Shown: in pieces, positions 3,248 through 61,331 of the stretch | How positions within the stretch are numbered: the stretch's first letter is position 1 | Layout of the letters: the number at the start of each line of letters is the position of its first letter | Assembly: GCA_964484995.1 (NCBI GenBank) | Contig: CAZAHF010000001.1 | Coordinates: 672-64,671, forward strand | DNA: 64,000 bases | From: an uncultured Candidatus Bathyarchaeia archaeon | Lineage (GTDB): Archaea; Thermoproteota; Bathyarchaeia; Hecatellales; Hecatellaceae | Direction: 5' to 3' | Notes under the pieces: generated by a model | What the model saw: the letters and a program-made list of their open reading frames with translations, nothing else | Databases searched by the model: none | Told to the model about the DNA's origin: nothing | Made by a program: the position numbers and the translations under genes

Positions 3248-4168
3248 TTAAAATTTAGGTTTAAACAGGGTTTTTCTTCTTTTTTCAGTTGAGCATAAGA
3301 CTTCAAAGATTATTTTTGCTGCTAGGATTGCTGTAACTCCAAAATCGTATTTTGGGGTAAACTCAACAACGTCTAAACCTATAATGTTTAAAGTGTTACC
3401 TAAACCGACAAGTATGCTGGTTAATGTAGTTGGGTTTAAGCCTTCAGGTTCGGGGTTTGATGCTGCTGGAGCATAAGCAGGGTCTAAAACGTCTATATCA
3501 ACTGTTAAATAAACACCTGAAAAGGAGGAGGCAAAGCTTCTAAGTGTTTTTAAGGTTTCTTTAATATTTTGAGTTTTAACCTGTAAAGATGTTAAAAAAC
3601 CAATTTTTTCTTTTTTAGTGTATTCTAACTCTTCTTTGCATACGGCTCTAGTTCCAACAAAAAATACTCTTTCTCCACCGTTTTTTTCAATTATTCTACG
3701 CATAAAGGTTGTATGGGAAAACCTTTTTCCCAGATATTCGTCTCTAAGGTCTAAATGGGCGTCAAAAGAGATTATTCCAAACTTTTCTGGGAAGGCTTCG
3801 GCAACACTATAGGTAAGGGTGTGTTCTCCACCTAAAACTACAGGAAACTTTTTTAAACTAAAAATTTTTGATAAAACATTTTTTAGGTTTAAAAAGTTCT
3901 GGTTAAAATCATCAACAATAATAAGGTTTCCAAGGTCGCAAATTTTTAGGTCTTCAATATATAGGTCAGACCTAAAACTGTAGGTTTCAATGTTTAGGGA
4001 GGCTTCTCTAACAGCCTCCGGAGCTTTATTTGAGCCAAAACGGTAGGTGCTTGTGGCGTCAAAAGGAAAACCAAGAACAACATAATCCGAGTTTTTAAAG
4101 TCTACCTGAACATCAGCAAAAGGGTTTTTAGGTTTAACAAAAAATTCTTCTAAACTTTTATTCTCCAA
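3248..4168 (-). CDS. speB: Agmatinase / arginase-family ureohydrolase
   Basis: Binuclear Mn-site motifs of the arginase fold are present (GGEHTLTY, DAHLDLRD, TVDIDVLDP). It overlaps the upstream deoxyhypusine synthase gene by 11 nt, indicating an operon. Confidence 0.8.
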   Translation of the reverse strand: MENKSLEEFFVKPKNPFADVQVDFKNSDYVVLGFPFDATSTYRFGSNKAPEAVREASLNIETYSFRSDLYIEDLKICDLGNLIIVDDFNQNFLNLKNVLSKIFSLKKFPVVLGGEHTLTYSVAEAFPEKFGIISFDAHLDLRDEYLGKRFSHTTFMRRIIEKNGGERVFFVGTRAVCKEELEYTKKEKIGFLTSLQVKTQNIKETLKTLRSFASSFSGVYLTVDIDVLDPAYAPAASNPEPEGLNPTTLTSILVGLGNTLNIIGLDVVEFTPKYDFGVTAILAAKIIFEVLCSTEKRRKTLFKPKF

Positions 4169-5129
4169 AAATCCTCTCCATCACAGCTGCAACCAGTATA
4201 GGTAAACAGATTGTTGCATCACATATTACCTGAACCCTATGAGCTTCACCGCCAACCTTACCCCATGAAACAGCTTCCTCTAAGGTTGCACCTGACAAGC
4301 CTCCAGGTTCAGGGCGGTCCATAGTTATCTGAATAACATAGTCGTAGGGTTTCCCAAGCTTAAAAGCTGCTTGAAAAGCATAGTTTTTTGGCACTCCTCC
4401 ACCAACAATTAGAGCTCCAAGCTTTTTAGCTCTTCCAACAATGTTAAGAAAGTCTATAACACCTTTAAACGCATCAACAACTATACGTTTACCACAATGT
4501 TTTTCAACATACTCTTGAACAGCTAAACCAAAACATGAGTCTTGAATAGCTGGAACAAATATTGGAACCCTATACTTATATGCATTGTAAACTATAGAGT
4601 TTTCATCCCTAATTCTTTTACCTATTTCCTCAATAAACTCGGCAGTCGAAAAAATTTTGTCACCATTTTCCCTTATTATATCATTAAAAATTTCTATGAG
4701 AGGTTTGTCAAACTTATTTTTAAAATCATCTTCTGGAATAAAAACATCATAAACCCTATCAACTCCAGACTCATAAAGAAGTTTGTCATCAATATATGGT
4801 GTGCCTCTATAATGAACTCCACCAAAAACCTCTAACACATCATGAACAAGGTTAGCTCCAGTGCTAACAATAACATGGACCATTTTACGTTTAATCATCT
4901 CAATTACCACATGCTTCATACCCGCTGGAACCATAGCCCCTGCAAACCCAAAAACTATAGTTGCTCCATCTCTAACCATTTTCTCATAGATGTTTACTGC
5001 TTGAGCTAATCTTCCAGCACTAAAAGAACCTGACCTTGACATTTCAAGAATAAGCTCGTTTACAGTCATTTTTGGTTTAAGTCTTAAAGGTTTTACAGGC
5101 TCTCTACATATTTCACTAATCTGAGGCAA
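4158..5129 (-). CDS. dys: Deoxyhypusine synthase
   Basis: Full-length DHS-family protein (323 aa) with an NAD-binding glycine-rich region (IVGGGVPKNYAFQAA) and family-typical length. Confidence 0.85.
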   Translation of the reverse strand: MPQISEICREPVKPLRLKPKMTVNELILEMSRSGSFSAGRLAQAVNIYEKMVRDGATIVFGFAGAMVPAGMKHVVIEMIKRKMVHVIVSTGANLVHDVLEVFGGVHYRGTPYIDDKLLYESGVDRVYDVFIPEDDFKNKFDKPLIEIFNDIIRENGDKIFSTAEFIEEIGKRIRDENSIVYNAYKYRVPIFVPAIQDSCFGLAVQEYVEKHCGKRIVVDAFKGVIDFLNIVGRAKKLGALIVGGGVPKNYAFQAAFKLGKPYDYVIQITMDRPEPGGLSGATLEEAVSWGKVGGEAHRVQVICDATICLPILVAAVMERIFGE

Positions 5130-5249: not shown

Positions 5250-7067
5250 ATGGGGTTAAAGTTTAACATTTCCAAAGAAAAAAATATTCTTTTGGCAGTT
5301 TTTACTCTAAATTTTGTTTTAGCAGTTTTAGCGACAAAAGTTTTTTTTGAAAGCTACCCTTTAGGTATGGATTCTTTTTCGCATTTACCTAAGTTTCTCT
5401 ATTTTTCGAAGTACAGTTTTTCTCAATGGTTTTTTGATTGGTATTGTGGTTTTCCATATCTAATCTCTTATGCACCTTTAGCCTACATAATTGCTTATCT
5501 TCCAACCTTTATTGGTATTAATCCTATCCTATCTTACAAGCTTACTGAAATCTTCTTCTTAATATTAACTCCACTTGTTTTCTATAGACTGGCTAGAAGA
5601 CTTGGCTTAGAAAAAAATAGGTCGGCTTACGCAACCCTAATCTTCAGTATTATACCTTCAACAATCCAAAACTATCTAATTTTTGGTAGGTTTGCAAATA
5701 TTATTAGCTATCCTTTCTTTATTCTAACCCTAATCTTTATGTTTGATGTTTTAGAAAATTCCAAGAAAAAAAGTTTTATTTTAGCTTCCATATGTTTTAG
5801 TTTAACACTTTTAACACATCATTTTTCAGCTTATATTCTTCTTCTTGTAATGGTTATTTGTTTTCTCACTTTAGTCCAGGAAAAAGCAAGCCTAAATCAG
5901 GCTTTAGTAGGCATGGTTAAACTTGGGGGGATATCTCTTGTTGGATGTATTCTTTCAGGTTTTTGGCTTATACCCTACTACACCTATAAAGATTACTGGG
6001 TTTTAAGCGATTTTTCCCAGGAGACAGTTACGCTTCTAGCTTCACCAATCCTACTGGTTTTGATGGTTATCCTCATATGTTTAACTGTAAAAAAAGTTTT
6101 TAAACCAAAAAATTTTAGAAGTCTTTTTATTTTGGTTTGGATGATTGTTTTTCTTCTTTTAGGTTCAAGTCTTCTACCTTTAAAATATTTTTTACCTTTT
6201 GGTGGTGAAGTTGATTTCTTAAGGTTCCAACTTTATCTAGCTATACCTATAAGTCTTCTTTTAGTCAACCTTAAAGACTACTCTCTAGGTAAAATAGGAA
6301 AAAAACTTTTACTTCAACAAAAACTGGATAAACCAAAAATGTGGATCCTTATAATCGTAGTTTTAAATATTTTAATTATGGGAGTTATTCTCCAGGTTTT
6401 CCCCACAGTTCTAGCTGAAGAGGTTTGGCCTGAAGACCCCCCACCCAAACTTATTCAATATATCAAAGAGCAAAAAGATTGGGGTAGAATCCTACCCATA
6501 GACTGTCCATTTTGGGTTTATAACCTCCCATATCTAACAGAAAAACCTTTAGTTGACGGATGGTATCCTCAAGGATGTATTTTGCCAAAAATAAAATCTA
6601 GTACAAGAAAAACAATAAACCATTATTCAAATGAAACAATGTTAAAACACTTTATAGGTAACGCCGAAACCTACGGTATAAAATGGGTTTTAGTTGGAAA
6701 CCATTCAAAACTTTATCTACTCAAAAACAGCAATTTCCACAAAGTTTTAACTATTTCAAGGTTTACACTTTTTGAAAATACTTTAAATTTAACCTATATA
6801 GAGACAAACCCAAAAACAACAAAAATTGAGTACATCCAAAAAAGAGACTCCATAATTATAAGTTTAGAAACAAAAAGCTTTAAAACAACAGTTCTAGTTA
6901 AAGAAGCATATTTTCCAGGATGGGTTGTAACCGAAAACAATAAAGAGATATCCGTCTATCCAGATGAAAATGGATTTATCTGTTTTAATATTTATGGTGC
7001 TGGTAAGCATACGGTTATCTTAAAGTTTAATCCATACAGGGATATTCTTCAAAGATTTTTTGGATAA
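5250..7067 (+). CDS. Polytopic membrane protein, putative GT-C-fold glycosyltransferase / YfhO-like (605 aa)
   Basis: About 12 predicted TM helices in the first ~400 aa. An Asp-containing first loop (GMDSFSH) precedes a soluble C-terminal ~200-aa domain. No WWDYG (AglB) motif is present. Confidence 0.35.
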   Translation: MGLKFNISKEKNILLAVFTLNFVLAVLATKVFFESYPLGMDSFSHLPKFLYFSKYSFSQWFFDWYCGFPYLISYAPLAYIIAYLPTFIGINPILSYKLTEIFFLILTPLVFYRLARRLGLEKNRSAYATLIFSIIPSTIQNYLIFGRFANIISYPFFILTLIFMFDVLENSKKKSFILASICFSLTLLTHHFSAYILLLVMVICFLTLVQEKASLNQALVGMVKLGGISLVGCILSGFWLIPYYTYKDYWVLSDFSQETVTLLASPILLVLMVILICLTVKKVFKPKNFRSLFILVWMIVFLLLGSSLLPLKYFLPFGGEVDFLRFQLYLAIPISLLLVNLKDYSLGKIGKKLLLQQKLDKPKMWILIIVVLNILIMGVILQVFPTVLAEEVWPEDPPPKLIQYIKEQKDWGRILPIDCPFWVYNLPYLTEKPLVDGWYPQGCILPKIKSSTRKTINHYSNETMLKHFIGNAETYGIKWVLVGNHSKLYLLKNSNFHKVLTISRFTLFENTLNLTYIETNPKTTKIEYIQKRDSIIISLETKSFKTTVLVKEAYFPGWVVTENNKEISVYPDENGFICFNIYGAGKHTVILKFNPYRDILQRFFG

Positions 7068-9046
7068 TAAACAGTTTCCCCTGTCTCCTTTAAAATAAGA
7101 ATCCCCTCAACTCTCTCTTTTACTCTCTCCTTAAAATCTTTAGACCTTAAAATTTCAAGAAAACTTTGAATCTCAACCTTATTCATCCTATCAACCCTAA
7201 AAACAAAATCGTATAAGTCTTCAGTTAAAGGTATAAAGTCTAAACCATAACGTTTAGCAAAACCTTCAAACCCAAATCCAACATCTACTCTACCATCCAA
7301 AATTGCTGAAATACAACTTTGATAAGAGCCAACCTCAAAGTTGTATCCCTTAATCTTTGACGTTAAACTTTCAAAGTCCAATCCAGTTTTTTCAGCAAGC
7401 TTTCTAAACAAGAAATCTAAAAGTTCTCTTTGCTCTAAACCATGACTCCAGTTAACCATAATAACATCTTCTCTTAAGAAATCATCTAAACCACGAATAT
7501 TTTTCGGGTTTCCCTTCTTCACAAAAATCCCATGCCGCCTTTTATAGCCTCTAACAAGAACAGCCTCATTTTTAATTCCGTAAATTTCAAGAAAAGGCAG
7601 ATTATAGTCTCCTGTTTGCTTATCTAAAAGACTTATTCCAGCAAAATCCGCTCCACCTCTTCTTAAACTTGTTAAACCACCAGAAGAACCAACATTAAAA
7701 ATTTTAATTTTCCAGTTAGGATGTTTTAAAGCTAAAATTTCTAGGATAAAATCTAAACCTAAACAAGCTAAACCAGCAAAAACAAGATTTGAAGGTTTAA
7801 CTTCTTGACTAAAAAGTTTAACCTCAAAAACTTCCCCCTTCTCAACAATAGTCTTATTTTCAGGTATTTCAATAAACCCGTCAGCCTTTGCTAGAGTTGT
7901 AATTGCACCAGAACCTGTTGGTAGAGAAAAAGCTTCCAGCCCATCTTTTGTATGTAGAAGGTTTACAGGTAAAAAGTCTCTTCGCCCCTCGCTAGCAAAA
8001 ATTTTTTCGCCAACCTTTACCTTTAAAACTCTTCTTCTAATTGTAGGGTCTAATCCAGCCATCTCCATAAGAATTGGACGTACAAATAAGTCAAAAACCA
8101 TCAAGGCTGAGGTGGGATAACCAGGTAAACCAAAAATAGGTTTTTTATCTACAACAGCAAGCAAAGTTGGTTTTCCTGGTTTAATTAAGACTCCATGAAC
8201 AATTATTCCAGGTTTTCCAAGCTTCTCCACAACCCTATAAAGTATATCTCCAACCCCTGCTGATGTACCTCCTGAAACAATAACAGCATCACTAATCTCT
8301 AATCCTTCCTTAAGCTTCTGGTAAATAGAATTAAAATTATCTTCAGCAATCCCAAGAAAAATAGGTTCACATCCACATTCCCTAACCGAGCAGCAAATAG
8401 TATAACTATTTACATCATAAATTTTGCCAGACTCTAAGGGTTTTCCAGGTGAGACAAGTTCAGCGCCAGTTGAAAAAACAGCAATCTTAGGTTTTTTAAA
8501 GCAAGGAGGTTTAACAAAACCTATAGCTGCAAGTAACCCTATTTCTCTAGCTGTAAGAATTGTCCCTCTCCTTAAAAGAAGTTCTCCAGCTTTTATATCT
8601 GAACCTGCAACCATAACATTTTCATTTGGTGAGATAGGCTTGTAGACATAAACAAAATCTTTTTCACGTCTAGTATATTCAACCATTACTACAGCATCAG
8701 CACCCAAAGGTATAGGTGCACCAGTAGAAATTTCAACAGCCTCTCCATCATCAACTTTTATGCTTGGTTTTTCACCTGCAGCTATTCTTCCAACAACCCT
8801 AAGTTTAATAGGGTTTGTTTCTCCAGCTCCAAATGTGTTTTTTGCTTTTACAGCATAACCATCCATAGCAGCCCTATCAAAAAACGGAACATCAACTAAA
8901 CCAAAAACATCAGAACCTAAAACTCTACCACAAGCCTCAGTTAAGGGTACACTCTCAACACCTAAAGGTTTTGGTTTAAAAAAACTGTAAAACCTTTTTT
9001 TAGCTTCTTCAACAGACAAAAGTTTATGAAAAATTTCTCTTTCCAA
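7049..9046 (-). CDS. moeA: Molybdopterin molybdotransferase MoeA fused to a C-terminal PBP-like (oxyanion-binding-like) domain (665 aa)
   Basis: The N-terminal ~400 aa align to MoeA (FDRAAMDGYAV, GGTSAGVGD-like MoCF-biosynthesis motif). About 250 extra C-terminal aa resemble the PBP-like domain found fused to archaeal MoeA. Confidence 0.8.
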   Translation of the reverse strand: MEREIFHKLLSVEEAKKRFYSFFKPKPLGVESVPLTEACGRVLGSDVFGLVDVPFFDRAAMDGYAVKAKNTFGAGETNPIKLRVVGRIAAGEKPSIKVDDGEAVEISTGAPIPLGADAVVMVEYTRREKDFVYVYKPISPNENVMVAGSDIKAGELLLRRGTILTAREIGLLAAIGFVKPPCFKKPKIAVFSTGAELVSPGKPLESGKIYDVNSYTICCSVRECGCEPIFLGIAEDNFNSIYQKLKEGLEISDAVIVSGGTSAGVGDILYRVVEKLGKPGIIVHGVLIKPGKPTLLAVVDKKPIFGLPGYPTSALMVFDLFVRPILMEMAGLDPTIRRRVLKVKVGEKIFASEGRRDFLPVNLLHTKDGLEAFSLPTGSGAITTLAKADGFIEIPENKTIVEKGEVFEVKLFSQEVKPSNLVFAGLACLGLDFILEILALKHPNWKIKIFNVGSSGGLTSLRRGGADFAGISLLDKQTGDYNLPFLEIYGIKNEAVLVRGYKRRHGIFVKKGNPKNIRGLDDFLREDVIMVNWSHGLEQRELLDFLFRKLAEKTGLDFESLTSKIKGYNFEVGSYQSCISAILDGRVDVGFGFEGFAKRYGLDFIPLTEDLYDFVFRVDRMNKVEIQSFLEILRSKDFKERVKERVEGILILKETGETVYYPKNL

Positions 9047-9078
9047 AAACTTTTCACCGATATTTGGGTCTAATTTGT

Positions 9079-10347
9079 TTAAAACAAAATCACTTCTACT
9101 TCTTCTCCCTCTTTTAATCCTTCCCTGTTTTTAGGTATAACAATAAATCCGTCAGCTTTAACCATTGAGGAGATTACTCCAGCACCAGAAACTCTGATAG
9201 GCTCAGCATAAAGTTTCCTATCAACATTCTTCAAAGAAACTCTAACAAAATCCATTGTTCCAAGAGTTGAAGGAATATCCTTTGTAACTTTTGCTTTAAT
9301 AATACGTTCATACTTCTGATAGGGGATGTCTAACATTTCACAAAAGATTCTTTTAACAAAAACATGAAAAGCAACCATTGTTGAGACAGGGTAACCTGGA
9401 AGTAAAACAGCTGGTTTACCGTTAACCAAAGCTAAAGCTGTAGGTTTTCCAGGTCTAATTGAAACTCCATGAACAATTACTTTTGAGTTTTTTGTTTGGT
9501 TTACTGCTTGAGGCACAAAATCTTTTTCACCAACAGAAGTTCCACCACAAACAAGAATTAGGTCAGCTTTTTCCGAGGCTTCTAAAAGTTTAAGCTTAAT
9601 TAGCTCAACATCATCAGAAACAATACCTAAATCTACCGGTTCTCCGCCAATTTTTTTGATAGCTGAAAGAAGAAAATATCTATTTGAATCAAAAATTTTC
9701 CCTATAGAGGGAGTTTCACCATCTTTAGGTTCTACAAGTTCACTTCCAACAGAAAAAACTGCAACCTTAGGCTTACAAAAAACCCTAACCTTTTTTAATC
9801 CTAAAGCTGCAAGTAAACTTAAATCGTAGGGACTTAAAACAGTCCCTCTACTCAAAACTTTTTCTCCAACCTTAACATCTTCTCCAGCTTTTGAAACATT
9901 AGCACCAGCAGGAACAGAAGAATATACTATTAACTTATCTTCCCCAAGAACCTCTGTATATTCAACCATTACTACAGCATCAGCACCTTTAGGCAGAGGT
10001 GCACCAGTAAAAACTTTTACAGCTTCCATCTCTCCAACAGTAAGGTTTGAAGGTTTTCCAGCTTCAACATTACCAACTATTTTAAGGATAACCGGACTTG
10101 TTTTTGAAGCTCCAAATGTGTTTTTTGCTTTTACAGCATAACCATCCATAGCAGCCCTATCAAAAAACGGAATATTAGTAGTGCTAAAAACGTCAGAACC
10201 TAGAACTCTATCTAGGCTTTCAGTTAGATTAACCTCCTCAACATTCATCTTTCCTATACTTACGTTTTCAAGAAAACTTCTCCAAGCCTCTTCAACATTT
10301 AAAGTCTCAATAAAACCTCTTACCCTAACATCCTTCACAGAACCCAA
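9079..10347 (-). CDS. moeA: Molybdopterin molybdotransferase MoeA (422 aa), second tandem paralog
   Basis: Canonical MoeA length and motifs (FFDRAAMDGYAVKAKNTFGA, GGTSVGEKD). Confidence 0.85.
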   Translation of the reverse strand: MGSVKDVRVRGFIETLNVEEAWRSFLENVSIGKMNVEEVNLTESLDRVLGSDVFSTTNIPFFDRAAMDGYAVKAKNTFGASKTSPVILKIVGNVEAGKPSNLTVGEMEAVKVFTGAPLPKGADAVVMVEYTEVLGEDKLIVYSSVPAGANVSKAGEDVKVGEKVLSRGTVLSPYDLSLLAALGLKKVRVFCKPKVAVFSVGSELVEPKDGETPSIGKIFDSNRYFLLSAIKKIGGEPVDLGIVSDDVELIKLKLLEASEKADLILVCGGTSVGEKDFVPQAVNQTKNSKVIVHGVSIRPGKPTALALVNGKPAVLLPGYPVSTMVAFHVFVKRIFCEMLDIPYQKYERIIKAKVTKDIPSTLGTMDFVRVSLKNVDRKLYAEPIRVSGAGVISSMVKADGFIVIPKNREGLKEGEEVEVILF

Positions 10348-10368: not shown

Positions 10369-11220
10369 TTAACTTAACCCGTACTCTTTAAGGATTTTTT
10401 TAAATTTAACAGCATCCTCCTCTAAAACAGGGCTTTCAGAGATTATTACTCCACTAACACTGTATTCTTTTAGTGCTTCAGCTAAAAACCTAAAGTTTAT
10501 GTCACCCTTCTCAAAAATAAGATGCCTTTTCTCATCTCCAGAAGGTGAATACTCAATTTGGGTAAAATGTTGATGAAGATTTTTTAGTGCGTTTGAACCA
10601 AGCTCAGACTCTATCAGGTTAAGTATCCTTATAAAGTCCTCCTTTGTTTTTAGACATCCAGCACAACGTGCATGAATATGAGCCCAGTCAACAACAATCT
10701 TTTGGCCTGTTTCACGAACAATTTTTAGAACATCTTCAATAGGTCCAACTTGAGATTGTCTACCCATAGTTTCAATACCTATGGGTATAGGGCATTCATC
10801 AGCTATCTCATTTATGGCTTTAATAACCATCTTGTTTGCTTCTTCTCTTGAATGTTTCCCATAGTATGCTGGATGAACAACTGCTAATTCAGCATTATAA
10901 AGACTTCCAATTTTACATGTTTCAACTATCCTTTGCTGAGACTTTTTGATGGTAGTCTTATCTCCACAAAGATTGATAAAATAGGGTGCATGACATGAAA
11001 GTTTAACATCAAACTCTTTAGAGTAGTCTTTAAGCTTTAAGGCAACATCTCTATTCATTTTAACACCACGAACATACTGAACTTCAAGAGCATCTAAACC
11101 TATTCTTCTACAATATTCTAAGGCTTCTCTGTAACCTTTCCCTTTCATAGCAAGAGGTATACCTGCAGGTCCAACCCGAATCAAGAACAAACCTCCAAAA
11201 ACAGGATGGTAAAAGGGCAA
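10369..11220 (-). CDS. nfo: Endonuclease IV-like AP endonuclease (xylose-isomerase-like TIM barrel)
   Basis: Matches Nfo metal-site motifs: HAPYFINL (HxSYLINL), VVHPAYY (FHPGSH), GIETMGRQ (IENTAGQG), VVDWAHIHA (IDTCHAFA). Confidence 0.65.
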   Translation of the reverse strand: MPFYHPVFGGLFLIRVGPAGIPLAMKGKGYREALEYCRRIGLDALEVQYVRGVKMNRDVALKLKDYSKEFDVKLSCHAPYFINLCGDKTTIKKSQQRIVETCKIGSLYNAELAVVHPAYYGKHSREEANKMVIKAINEIADECPIPIGIETMGRQSQVGPIEDVLKIVRETGQKIVVDWAHIHARCAGCLKTKEDFIRILNLIESELGSNALKNLHQHFTQIEYSPSGDEKRHLIFEKGDINFRFLAEALKEYSVSGVIISESPVLEEDAVKFKKILKEYGLS

Positions 11221-11282
11221 TAATTATTTTTGTTTTAAAGCTACATATACCTAACCTTAAACAAGGTTAAAAAGAAGGGATG

Positions 11283-12290
11283 CTAAGCTAATTCTCTTAA
11301 TGCCTTCAACCTTTTAACAATGTTTGGATGGGTTGAAAAAATCTCCATTATTCTATCCGCTAAAGTTATTTTTCTTGATAAAATCTCGTTTACAAGCTGC
11401 TGATCTGAAACTCTTTTAAAACTTGAAATTTCTAAGCTATCCCTTTCAGCCCTATCAGGATCAGAGATAAAGAGGGTTTTAAAGCTACTTAAGTTACCTA
11501 TCTCTCTACGCTGGTAGCCTTTAAGTCTGCCAGTATGATAAACTATTTTAGCTAAAGCTTCTGAAAGTTTACGTGCACCATCCTCAACACGGATTACACT
11601 TTCTCTGTCAGCGTAATACTCTCTATATCGGCTTAAACCTAAAACAAACAAAGATAAAATCCAGTAGATAAGCAGACATATGCCTCCAATAGCCAAAGCT
11701 ACAACAGGTCCTCCACCATTTCTTGACTCATATCCTCTCCAACCACCAAACCATCCTGAAAGCAGTAGAGAGTAACCTAAAAAGTAGAAAATTGCAGGTA
11801 AAACTGAAACAAACATCATTATCTGAACATCTTTATGTTTTAGATGGCCTAACTCATGTCCAACCACAGCTTCAACCTCTTCATCCTCTAAAACTCTTAA
11901 AAGTTCTTTTGTAACTGCAACTCTATTTCCTGTTAAAGGTGAACCGTAAGCAAAAGCATTTGGTATTGGAAGGTTTGCAACCATAACTTTTGGCATTTCT
12001 TTAAACCCCATTTTTCTACTTAAACTCTCAACAATTCTGTAAAGTTTTGGATTCTCGTTTGGTTTAACCTCACGTACACGGTAAAGAGTCTCAATCATTC
12101 TTGGAGCAAAAAGCCATTGGAGAAGATTAAACATAATAACTATTACAGCTAAAACAAAAAGGTTTAAAGAACCAATCCAAGTTAAAATTGCTGCAAAAAA
12201 TAGGGTTGATATGGCTATGATAAGTGTAAGTGTTCCATACATGGATAGGTAAAGCTTTAAGGCTCCCATAACCTTACCACTTATAATCAT
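11283..12290 (-). CDS. htpX: HtpX-like M48 zinc metalloprotease, membrane-bound
   Basis: HEXXH zinc motif (HELGHLKH) flanked by TM helices; N-terminal double TM segment. Confidence 0.8.
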   Translation of the reverse strand: MIISGKVMGALKLYLSMYGTLTLIIAISTLFFAAILTWIGSLNLFVLAVIVIMFNLLQWLFAPRMIETLYRVREVKPNENPKLYRIVESLSRKMGFKEMPKVMVANLPIPNAFAYGSPLTGNRVAVTKELLRVLEDEEVEAVVGHELGHLKHKDVQIMMFVSVLPAIFYFLGYSLLLSGWFGGWRGYESRNGGGPVVALAIGGICLLIYWILSLFVLGLSRYREYYADRESVIRVEDGARKLSEALAKIVYHTGRLKGYQRREIGNLSSFKTLFISDPDRAERDSLEISSFKRVSDQQLVNEILSRKITLADRIMEIFSTHPNIVKRLKALRELA

Positions 12291-47915: not shown

Positions 47916-49328
47916 CTATTTTTCTAAACCAAACTCTTTATGTAAAACTTTAACAGCCTTTTCACCATCACTTTCCTTAACAACAAAAGAAATGTTTAAT
48001 TCAGACGAGCCTTGAGCAATCATCCTTACGTTTATTTTTTCTTTTCCAACAGCACCAAAAACTCTTGCAGCAACCCCAGGTGTTCCAACCATCCCAGCTC
48101 CAACCAATGCTATCACACAAATATCATCTTCAGCCTTAATTTCACGTGCAATATTCCCACCTAAAATTTTAACTTCAAGCGCGTTTAAAGCATCTTCAAG
48201 CATATCTCTTGGAACAACAAAGGAAATGTTTGCTTCTGAAGAACTCTGGGAAATCATAAGTATGTTAATATTTTTCTCTCCAAGAATACTAAAAATCTTT
48301 GCAGCAACTCCAGGAACACCAAACATACCTGCACCTTCAACAGTAATCAATGCAGCCTTACGAATCAAGGATATAGCCTTAACTATAGACCTAGATTCTA
48401 CCTTCTGCTCTTTAGTGATAAGGGTTCCCGGATTTTCTGGGTTAAACGTATTTTTAACTCTTATAGGTATTCCTTTCTCCATAACTATCTCAATAGCCCC
48501 AGGATGCATCATTTTAGCTCCAAAATAAGCCATTTCCATGGCTTCCGCATAGGATATTTGAGGTATAACTCTAGCTTTAGCTTCAATTTTAGGATCTGTT
48601 GTCATTATACCGTCAACATCAGTCCAAATCCAAATTTCATCAACATCCAAAGCAACACCTAAAATTGAGGCTGTACAGTCAGACCCTCCTCTACCTAAAG
48701 TTGTGATTACACCATTTTGGTCTGCAGCAATAAACCCAGTTACAATAGGTGTAACATCTTCATCAAGAAGTTTTTGAAGCCTACTTTTAACCTGATGACT
48801 TGTAGTCTCCATTAATGGTCTTGCACTACCAAAATTTGAGTCTGTTACTATTCCCGCGTCTTTTCCAGTAAACCACTGGGTTTTTACTCCCATAGATTTT
48901 AAGGCTCCCCACACAATAGGGGTTGAAAGTCTTTCCCCAAAACTTAATATATAATCTTTAATTCTTGGTGTAAGCTCACGGAGATACGCAACCCCAACTA
49001 AAACGTTTTCAAGTTCAAGAAGTGTATCTTTAATTGTTTCCTCTACAGCCCTACGAACAGTTTCCTCTTTTACCGCTTTTTTACATGTGTTTAAATGTCT
49101 TTGTTTAAGCTCATCAACAAATCTTTTAATAAATTCTTTTTCACCCTTACCAGCTAAATTAGATGCTCTAAGAAGCTCATCGGTTACTCCGGCTAAAGCT
49201 GAAACAACAACCACAATTTTATTGTCTTGCTTAAGATATTTGTCTATAAGATTGCATACATGGCTTATACGTTCCCCATCAGCGACAGATGTTCCGCCAA
49301 ACTTCATTACAAGCCTCATTTTTACCAC
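47916..49328 (-). CDS. ask: Aspartate kinase with C-terminal ACT domains
   Basis: KFGGTSV amino-acid-kinase N-terminus, TLGRGGSD motif, and two ACT repeats. Confidence 0.85.
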   Translation of the reverse strand: MVKMRLVMKFGGTSVADGERISHVCNLIDKYLKQDNKIVVVVSALAGVTDELLRASNLAGKGEKEFIKRFVDELKQRHLNTCKKAVKEETVRRAVEETIKDTLLELENVLVGVAYLRELTPRIKDYILSFGERLSTPIVWGALKSMGVKTQWFTGKDAGIVTDSNFGSARPLMETTSHQVKSRLQKLLDEDVTPIVTGFIAADQNGVITTLGRGGSDCTASILGVALDVDEIWIWTDVDGIMTTDPKIEAKARVIPQISYAEAMEMAYFGAKMMHPGAIEIVMEKGIPIRVKNTFNPENPGTLITKEQKVESRSIVKAISLIRKAALITVEGAGMFGVPGVAAKIFSILGEKNINILMISQSSSEANISFVVPRDMLEDALNALEVKILGGNIAREIKAEDDICVIALVGAGMVGTPGVAARVFGAVGKEKINVRMIAQGSSELNISFVVKESDGEKAVKVLHKEFGLEK

Positions 49329-60098: not shown

Positions 60099-61331
60099 AT
60101 GGTTAAAAGTTTAATTGTAAAGTTTGGCGGCTCCTGTCTTTCAACACCTCAAAACATAAACTTAGCTGCAAAAAAGGTTGTTGAAGAAGTTAAAAAAGAC
60201 CGTAAAATTGCGGTTGTTGTTTCAGCTTTAGCCGGAGTAACCGATAATCTTCTTAAAACAGCTACTGAAGCAAGTTTAAATAAGCTTTCAAAAGAAGAGT
60301 TAGACGAAATTTTGTCTATGGGTGAAAGAACAGCGACAAGGCTAATGGTTTCAGCTCTAAAATCCTATGGTTTAAAGGCTATAGGGTTAGACCCTGCGGA
60401 TAAACTTTGGCCTATCTATACTAACGCAGAATATGGGAATGCCGAGGTTGATTTAGAAAAAACTTTGAAGGCTGTTAAAAGGAAGATTAAACCTTTACTT
60501 GATAATGGTTTTGTGGTTGTTGTCCCTGGTTTTATTGGTTTATCGCCAGAAGGTAAAACTACAACCTTGGGTAGAGGTGGAAGTGACATTACAGCTGTTG
60601 TTTTGGGTAGGTGTATTGAAGCTGATGAGGTTGTTTTTGTTAAAGATGTTGCTGGGGTTCTTTCAGCAGACCCAAAAAAGATTCCTACACCAACAAAAAT
60701 AGATGTTTTGGATGCTGAAGAAATGTTTAGTTTAAGTTCAGCAGGTGCAAAAGTTCTTCATCCAAGAGCATTAAAATATGTGACAAACAGTCTTACCTTA
60801 AGAGTTGCTGGTTTTAATGAAAGTCTTTCAGAAGGAACAGTGATAAAAGGAGAATTAGGTGTTGGTTTAAGGGTTTTCCTTTACCCTAAACCAGTATCCA
60901 TGGTAACAATAGTTGGAAGAGAGGTTGCAACACCAGAATCATTATTAAAAATTTTTTCAGAAACTCTTCCAACAAAGACAAAAATTTTAGGTTTAACTCT
61001 TGCCTCACCTTCTCTACTACTTTATGTTGAAAACCCTTCAAAGCTGATTAAAAATATTCATAACTTAATTAAAACTCAAAAAGTTGCTAAGGCTATTCAC
61101 AGTTTTGAACCGCTAACATTAATTATTGTTTCAGGTCATGAGTTAGAAAAGACTCCAGGTATTGTTGATTGTATTTCAGCTCCTTTAGCTAAAGAGAACA
61201 TTAACCTTTATGGTTTACTTACCATAAGTAATTCTGTTCGTGTTTTTGTTCATCAAAAAGATGGTAAGAAAGCTCTGGAGCTAATAAAAGAAAATTTAAG
61301 TAAAACAGGATTAGTTTTGCAGGAGGTGTAA
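60099..61331 (+). CDS. Aspartate kinase paralog (410 aa)
   Basis: Amino-acid-kinase N-terminus (IVKFGGSCL), TLGRGGSD motif and a C-terminal regulatory region. It is immediately upstream of asd. Confidence 0.75.
   Translation: MVKSLIVKFGGSCLSTPQNINLAAKKVVEEVKKDRKIAVVVSALAGVTDNLLKTATEASLNKLSKEELDEILSMGERTATRLMVSALKSYGLKAIGLDPADKLWPIYTNAEYGNAEVDLEKTLKAVKRKIKPLLDNGFVVVVPGFIGLSPEGKTTTLGRGGSDITAVVLGRCIEADEVVFVKDVAGVLSADPKKIPTPTKIDVLDAEEMFSLSSAGAKVLHPRALKYVTNSLTLRVAGFNESLSEGTVIKGELGVGLRVFLYPKPVSMVTIVGREVATPESLLKIFSETLPTKTKILGLTLASPSLLLYVENPSKLIKNIHNLIKTQKVAKAIHSFEPLTLIIVSGHELEKTPGIVDCISAPLAKENINLYGLLTISNSVRVFVHQKDGKKALELIKENLSKTGLVLQEV

Follow-up and report, generated by a model that had tools for sequence, protein, structure and literature searches.

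The two archaeal forms of MoeA, namely, MoeA1 with its fused PBP domain and the stand-alone MoeA2, arose by a duplication that predates the diversification of the archaea, and their genes are usually contiguous (PMC11291035). MoeA1-PBP has been proposed for tungsten and MoeA2 for molybdenum, and the two clades have been treated as separately evolving, with no mention of gene conversion (PMC11291035). Here we analyze such a pair in a stretch of 64,000 nucleotides (nt) from an uncultured Candidatus Bathyarchaeia archaeon (contig CAZAHF010000001.1), the whole of which is referred to below as the window, or W. The fused, moeA1-type gene ("fus") and the stand-alone, moeA2-type gene ("sol") of the window lie in tandem and share two short tracts of exact nucleotide identity, which are very probably the footprints of recent intrachromosomal (non-allelic) gene conversion (Table 1). 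In domain architectures, contiguity, and gene order the pair matches the MoeA1/MoeA2 pair as described, and by Pfam it has the contiguous, same-strand MoeA1-PBP/MoeA2 organization of these ancient archaeal paralogs. It departs from that description in that the window data point to local exchange between the two clades.

The closest analogue is the mtrA-1/mtrA-2 tandem of the Methanococcales and Methanomicrobiales (Wang et al., 2015, PMC4632066). As with moeA, these are ancient archaeal tandem duplicates, one of which carries an extra fused domain, and only the shared catalytic part has been recurrently converted, independently in several lineages. There, however, the entire MtrA domain has been homogenized and gene trees cluster the paralogs by species, whereas the moeA signal is confined to micro-tracts of 30–95 nt at one or two motifs, and whole-gene trees are cleanly orthologous. 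The 26 prokaryotic genes assigned to long-lasting concerted evolution likewise combine recurrent conversion with old paralogs of one pathway or complex (Wang & Chen, 2018, PMC6053082); moeA and the molybdenum-cofactor genes are not mentioned in the main text of that study. Concerted evolution of whole genes in that sense is not what the window displays, given 57% DNA and 46% protein identity between its paralogs and no within-genome excess of identity outside the tracts. As for the mode of exchange, short-patch, discontinuous conversion has been demonstrated experimentally in Sulfolobus acidocaldarius, where markers 20–30 nt apart are separable and mismatches are resolved without strand direction (Mao & Grogan, 2012, PMC3367456). 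This mode fits the window, in which the tracts are short and their donor pattern is a mosaic; it was, however, established in a crenarchaeon, with incoming DNA recombining with the chromosome, and its extension to ectopic exchange between paralogs in Bathyarchaeia is one that we infer. The moeA case is therefore a clean example of a known process with a modest twist, that of recurrent, motif-anchored micro-conversion between very old paralogs, and not a new element or mechanism.

The longer of the two tracts, tract 1, was the subject of the original prediction, which had reported a perfect 65-bp identity between otherwise clearly diverged genes and had attributed it to recent gene conversion between the tandem copies. 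The identity is exact: the copies in fus and sol agree base for base over precisely 65 nt, with one mismatch bounding each side. A search of the window for this 65-mer, allowing three mismatches, returned the two sites and no others, against none expected from 100 dinucleotide shuffles. The tract opens with the final two bases of a codon, for Val in fus and for Ile in sol, and continues with 21 whole codons for the shared peptide PFFDRAAMDGYAVKAKNTFGA; the peptide originally given for it, starting with "F", was the product of a frame slip. Divergence of the remainder is equally clear, the two proteins being 46% identical (191 of 412 aligned residues) and the two genes 57% identical at the DNA level, compared with 76–81% DNA identity between each gene and its ortholog in the closest relative. 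Of the flanks, which had been described as similar for another ~20 bp, moderately similar DNA is indeed found farther out; directly at its borders, the tract abuts diverged codons, and the similarity beyond reflects protein conservation, as detailed below.

That relative, "Candidatus Hecatellales archaeon isolate B76_G16" (L002), shares 99% DNA identity with a second assembly of the same sister species, ENA contig L001 (L1), and their orthologs match the window proteins at 80% for fus and 73% for sol. In the tract 1 segment, the paralogs of the sister species agree at only 47 of 65 positions (72%) and differ in seven residues, the peptide being FFDRATVDGYAVKAKDTFRA in fus and PFNRAAMDGYAVKAENTFGA in sol. 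The window tract, in turn, differs from each sister-species ortholog at 11–13 of 65 positions (80–83% identity), the same level as gene-wide. Because the tract is as diverged between species as the genes around it, its nucleotide sequence is not itself conserved across species. Five synonymous states within it (CCG, GCT, GGT, GCT, and ACA) occur only in the window lineage, in both of its copies. Relatedness switches in parallel: across alignment columns 49–83 the nearest neighbor of the window fus gene is the window sol gene, and vice versa, while over the rest of the gene each is closest to its sister-species ortholog. Three further genomes (L7, which is Ca. Hecatella orcuttiae, L12, and L13) show the same switch, with the paralog nearest inside the tract and the ortholog elsewhere. 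Excess identity over both flanks and chance, lineage specificity with homogenized synonymous sites, and a local incongruence of relatedness together constitute the standard signature of non-allelic gene conversion, and in this respect the sister species, the neighbor switch, and the cross-genome comparison that follows lend the original proposal firm support.

A run of identical codons could in principle arise with no recombination at all, if strong purifying selection kept an active-site motif invariant and strong codon bias, in a genome rich in AT, limited the choice of codons. Tract 1 does encode the most conserved motif of MoeA_N, and the genome, at 35% guanine plus cytosine (GC), has skewed codon usage, such that two identical residues share a codon with a probability of, for example, 0.81 for Phe. 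Gene-wide, identical residues of fus and sol use the same codon in 115 cases where 92 are expected, and conserved motifs do yield exact runs of up to 25 nt between genomes. Even so, with codon frequencies taken from the 39 long open reading frames (ORFs) of the window, the probability that all 21 codons coincide, given identical amino acids, is 9.6e-7, and the longest observed run of same-codon use among identical residues (24) surpasses the maximum of 19 reached in 20,000 simulations. A more direct control is provided by comparing paralogs across genomes, since a fus gene of one species and a sol gene of another are under the same protein constraint, and conversion between them is impossible after speciation. 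For this purpose, the sol-then-fus tandem pairs of the window and nine further contigs were arranged in a 10 × 10 matrix of fus against sol, and the longest exact aligned run was recorded for each cell. All 90 cross-genome pairs stay at or below 25 nt, and pairs between the window and L1, which share the motif and a similar codon bias, attain only 13–15 nt. Within genomes, by contrast, the longest run is 65 nt in the window, 95 nt in L13, 68 nt in L12, 41 nt in L7 (followed by 17 nt beyond a single mismatch), and 31 nt in L1, and 10–14 nt in L8, L5, L6, L10, and L11. The excess within genomes is thus attributable neither to constraint nor to codon bias. Taken together with the 18 of 65 positions, including those of the seven residue differences, at which the sister-species paralogs disagree, and with the extension of the L13 tract over non-conserved residues, this sequence-based control effectively refutes codon bias, to which we assign a negligible likelihood.

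The same comparison indicates that the event in the window is one of a series. In a GENECONV-style permutation of variable columns, none of 5000 permutations reached the observed run for the window, L7, L12, or L13; L1 gave P = 2e-4, and the other genomes P of at least 0.03. The signal thereby recurs in several independent lineages, and at the same place: the motif 1 tracts of the window, L12, L13, and L7 all overlap PPFDRAAMDGYAV, while motif 2, discussed next, bears tracts in the window and L1. Synonymous choices differ in every tract-bearing genome, and since each tract has its own, the motif 1 tracts represent independent or continually renewed events. The tract of L13 also covers upstream residues that are normally variable and paralog-specific, which excludes motif conservation as its cause. 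On these sequence comparisons, the motif is an apparent hotspot at which micro-conversion has recurred between paralogs older than the diversification of the archaea. This recurrence, along with the second tract and the mosaic, seemingly bidirectional makeup of the first, had escaped the original prediction.

Tract 2, an exact run of 32 nt, preserves a record of more than one exchange. Its codons read GTA GTA ATG GTT GAA in both window copies and GTG GTT ATG GTT GAG in both copies of the sister species. Three synonymous sites are thus fixed between the species yet common to both paralogs within each, a pattern that requires one or more conversions since the two species separated. When more distant orthologs are taken as the reference, moreover, fus of the lineage leading to the window and the sister species carries D and Y of the sol type, and sol carries V of the fus type; the tract 2 motif must therefore have been exchanged earlier too. 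Both tracts are embedded in a 255-nt region in which fus and sol are 77% identical, tracts included. Once the tracts are removed, paralog identity within and across genomes is equal, at 63% in the 255-nt region and 50–53% in the remainder. It follows that conversion was confined to the two short tracts, and that the similarity of the flanks is due to protein conservation. A broader and older conversion spanning the 255-nt region was rejected on the same grounds. Two 16-nt exact runs were likewise set aside as chance or conservation, one (8190–8205/9464–9479) because cross-genome runs reach 22 nt at its motif, the other (8652–8667/9515–9530) because it is out of register.

The residues of tract 1 carry some information on the direction of transfer. 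Every amino-acid difference between a window gene and its sister-species ortholog in this segment is toward the state of the other paralog, namely, T to A, V to M, D to N, and R to G in fus, and P to F, N to D, and E to K in sol. Polarized with eight outgroup pairs, F (CCN to TTT) and K are novelties of the fus lineage that are now also present in the window sol gene, while N is a novelty of the sol lineage now also present in the window fus gene. The tract would accordingly be a mosaic, which weakly suggests, from sequence patterns, either two or more events or a single heteroduplex that was patchily resolved. The case for any direction is weak, since a single G-to-A transition is all that supports K, and the same holds for N.

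As the window belongs to a metagenome-assembled genome (MAG), an origin of the identity in assembly or polishing deserves scrutiny, and collapsed reads had been named at the outset as the alternative to conversion. Reads of one paralog might have entered the consensus of the other, or a bubble in the assembly graph might have been collapsed, in which case at least one copy of the tract would not be real. Short-read assemblers can pop bubbles between near-identical repeats, the only NCBI entry for a protein identical to sol (P0001) comes from a single contig, and the one independent contig that covers part of the locus, L009, ends at window position 9611, 497 nt short of the sol copy of tract 1. 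Yet DNA of ~75% similarity should not become identical by way of an assembler: a chimeric path would need exact k-mer overlaps at both ends, and these would exist only if the true copies were nearly identical to begin with. On either side, each copy is flanked by the correct orthologous sequence, with no sign of a swap. L009 itself (JGI Ga0180301_10027742), the one contig recovered by a metagenome scan for the exact 65-mer, matches window positions 5635–9611 at 99.62% and carries fus tracts 1 and 2 in identical form; none of its 15 scattered single-nucleotide polymorphisms falls within either, a confirmation that pertains to the fus copy only. Finally, four further assemblies, which stem from different projects, contain same-genome tracts of different sequence at this place; among them are a contig of 1.27 Mb from Ca. 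Hecatella orcuttiae and one of 207 kb from NCBI. An assembly artefact is thus unlikely, with only a very slim chance of being the explanation. L009 represents another strain or population of this organism, present in a Joint Genome Institute (JGI) metagenome.

Several observations nonetheless temper the case for conversion. For the sol copy of the tract, the evidence comes from one MAG assembly, and de Bruijn bubble-popping could have removed one or two real mismatches, so that the word "perfect" may slightly overstate the identity. Tract 2, taken alone, is with its 32 nt barely above the cross-genome maximum of 25. Only one sister species is available to polarize the changes, which leaves direction and number of events weakly determined, and the transitions underlying the K and N calls occurred in a genome that is drifting toward AT. 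A four-taxon site-pattern test counted 25 "concerted" and 12 "crossed" sites, a modest excess, and many of the concerted sites are third positions with A in the window and G in the sister species, which the difference in GC content (35% vs. 38%) could mimic; being partly confounded in this way, the test was not relied upon. Tracts are also not universal: five of the ten tandem fus/sol pairs (L5, L6, L8, L10, and L11) have none, and neither does a tandem MoeA/MoeA pair in Lokiarchaeia, an outgroup in which the longest run is 11 nt. A genome lacking the moeA tandem, taken as a further outgroup, showed no tract.

It may also be asked whether the shared sequence is itself a functional element at the nucleotide level, such as an RNA structure, a target of a small or antisense RNA, or a protein-binding site, held identical by selection. 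One sequence within two co-oriented and probably co-transcribed genes could serve as a common regulatory target, and the site does recur across several genomes. Against this, no Rfam family scores at its gathering threshold anywhere in the window, and the 65-mer is predicted to fold no better than shuffled sequences (z = –0.55), on which account the RNA element was rejected. The 80–83% identity of the window and sister-species orthologs within the tract reveals no conservation beyond what the protein needs, the tract-bearing genomes each make different synonymous choices, and half of the 10 genomes do without any tract. A nucleotide-level element is therefore exceedingly improbable.

Gene conversion could operate here as follows. 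A break or a stalled fork in one copy would be repaired by homologous recombination from the neighboring copy, 1283 bp away. Heteroduplex would form only where the ancient paralogs are still similar in DNA, that is, in the segments for the invariant MoeA_N motifs PPFDRAAMDGYAV and GADAVVM.E, and short-patch resolution would copy a few dozen bases from strand to strand. Each event would leave the segment 100% identical and so make the next one easier, such that the same spot would be rehomogenized time after time in different lineages, with identity staying at ~50–57% elsewhere in the genes. What we infer is thus a homology-limited, self-reinforcing hotspot, and the recombination mechanism and the direction of transfer have the same standing. 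Alternatively, the matching of active-site-motif segments may be selected and not just a by-product of limited homology, a reading that we consider improbable. The two enzymes may need matched loops, for example in heterodimers or on a common partner or substrate-handover surface of the tungsten and molybdenum cofactor pathways, and conversion would then act as a device of co-evolution between paralogs whose separation is older than the archaeal radiation. The tracts of the window and L12 both stop right before the paralog-specific residues, GAG/E versus GAS, and this common 3′ boundary fits conversions that are tolerated only up to such residues.

If tracts 1 and 2 are indeed conversion footprints, paralogs that split before archaeal diversification and are ~46% identical still swap sequence through motif-seeded micro-tracts, repeatedly at one spot. 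Phylogenies of MoeA1 and MoeA2, and ancestral reconstructions of the active-site motif, would then be locally contaminated by paralog exchange, and inferences of tungsten versus molybdenum specificity from motif residues should allow for swaps such as those of F and K into MoeA2 and of N into MoeA1 in the window. Screens for concerted evolution that are based on trees would miss micro-tract events of this kind. As evidence from nature, the locus also suggests that short-patch conversion may be at work in Bathyarchaeia that have not been cultured.

Table 1. Coordinates of the moeA pair, its shared tracts, and other features mentioned in the text (window positions unless a contig is named)
Feature	Position	Strand	Description
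fus (moeA1-type, MoeA with C-terminal PBP-like domain)	7049–9046	minus	665 amino acids (aa); Pfam MoeA_N, MoCF_biosynth, MoeA_C, PBP_like
sol (moeA2-type, stand-alone MoeA)	9079–10347	minus	422 aa; Pfam MoeA_N, MoCF_biosynth, MoeA_C
Putative conversion tract 1, fus copy	8825–8889	minus	65 nt exact; encodes (V)PFFDRAAMDGYAVKAKNTFGA, the most conserved MoeA_N motif
Putative conversion tract 1, sol copy	10108–10172	minus	65 nt exact; has the fus-type derived F and K, absent from all other sol orthologs
Putative conversion tract 2, fus copy	8673–8704	minus	32 nt exact; encodes GADAVVMVEYT
Putative conversion tract 2, sol copy	9956–9987	minus	32 nt exact
moeA locus of L13	L013:3001–5934		Bathyarchaeia; tract-bearing
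moeA locus of L12	L012:3001–6266		Bathyarchaeia; tract-bearing
moeA locus of L7	L007:4001–7280		Bathyarchaeia; tract-bearing
ORF convergent with fus	5250–7067		605 aa; PTPS-related membrane domain
Overlap of this ORF with fus	7049–7067		19 nt; 3′ ends
Aspartate-kinase paralog	47916–49328	minus	AA_kinase + ACT
Aspartate-kinase paralog	60099–61331	plus	AA_kinase + ACT
Inverted segment shared by the aspartate-kinase paralogs	49153–49234/60190–60271		82 nt, 84% identity; 34-nt exact run from 49179

In the window, sol lies directly upstream of fus, and the two form tandem direct repeats on the same strand, separated by a gap of 32 nt. This sol-then-fus order is also found in L001, L002, L005–L008, and L010–L013. 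The solved structures closest to sol are those of Pyrococcus MoeA (1xi8 and 1wu2). The 3′ end of fus overlaps that of a convergent ORF, and a comparable convergent overlap is seen in L001 and L002. An M48 peptidase and a deoxyhypusine synthase are encoded near the moeA pair both in the window (4158–5129 and 10369–12290) and in Ca. Hecatella orcuttiae (L007:960–1937 and 7421–8413), while the context differs in a more distant clade of Bathyarchaeia (L005, L006, L010, and L011), where NAD kinase, PIN, PK_C, and an aminotransferase are found. Deoxyhypusine synthase is a marker of archaea and eukaryotes; the best matches of the window proteins are to MAGs of Bathyarchaeia, the class that includes the order Hecatellales. 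The window has a GC content of 35.4%, and no tRNA gene was detected by ARAGORN in its entire 64 kb.

The window contains a second pair of paralogs with local similarity. Two aspartate-kinase genes, ~11 kb apart and in opposite orientation, share an inverted segment that includes an exact run. From its sequence, this segment may be another instance of motif-anchored micro-conversion, or it may reflect conservation only.

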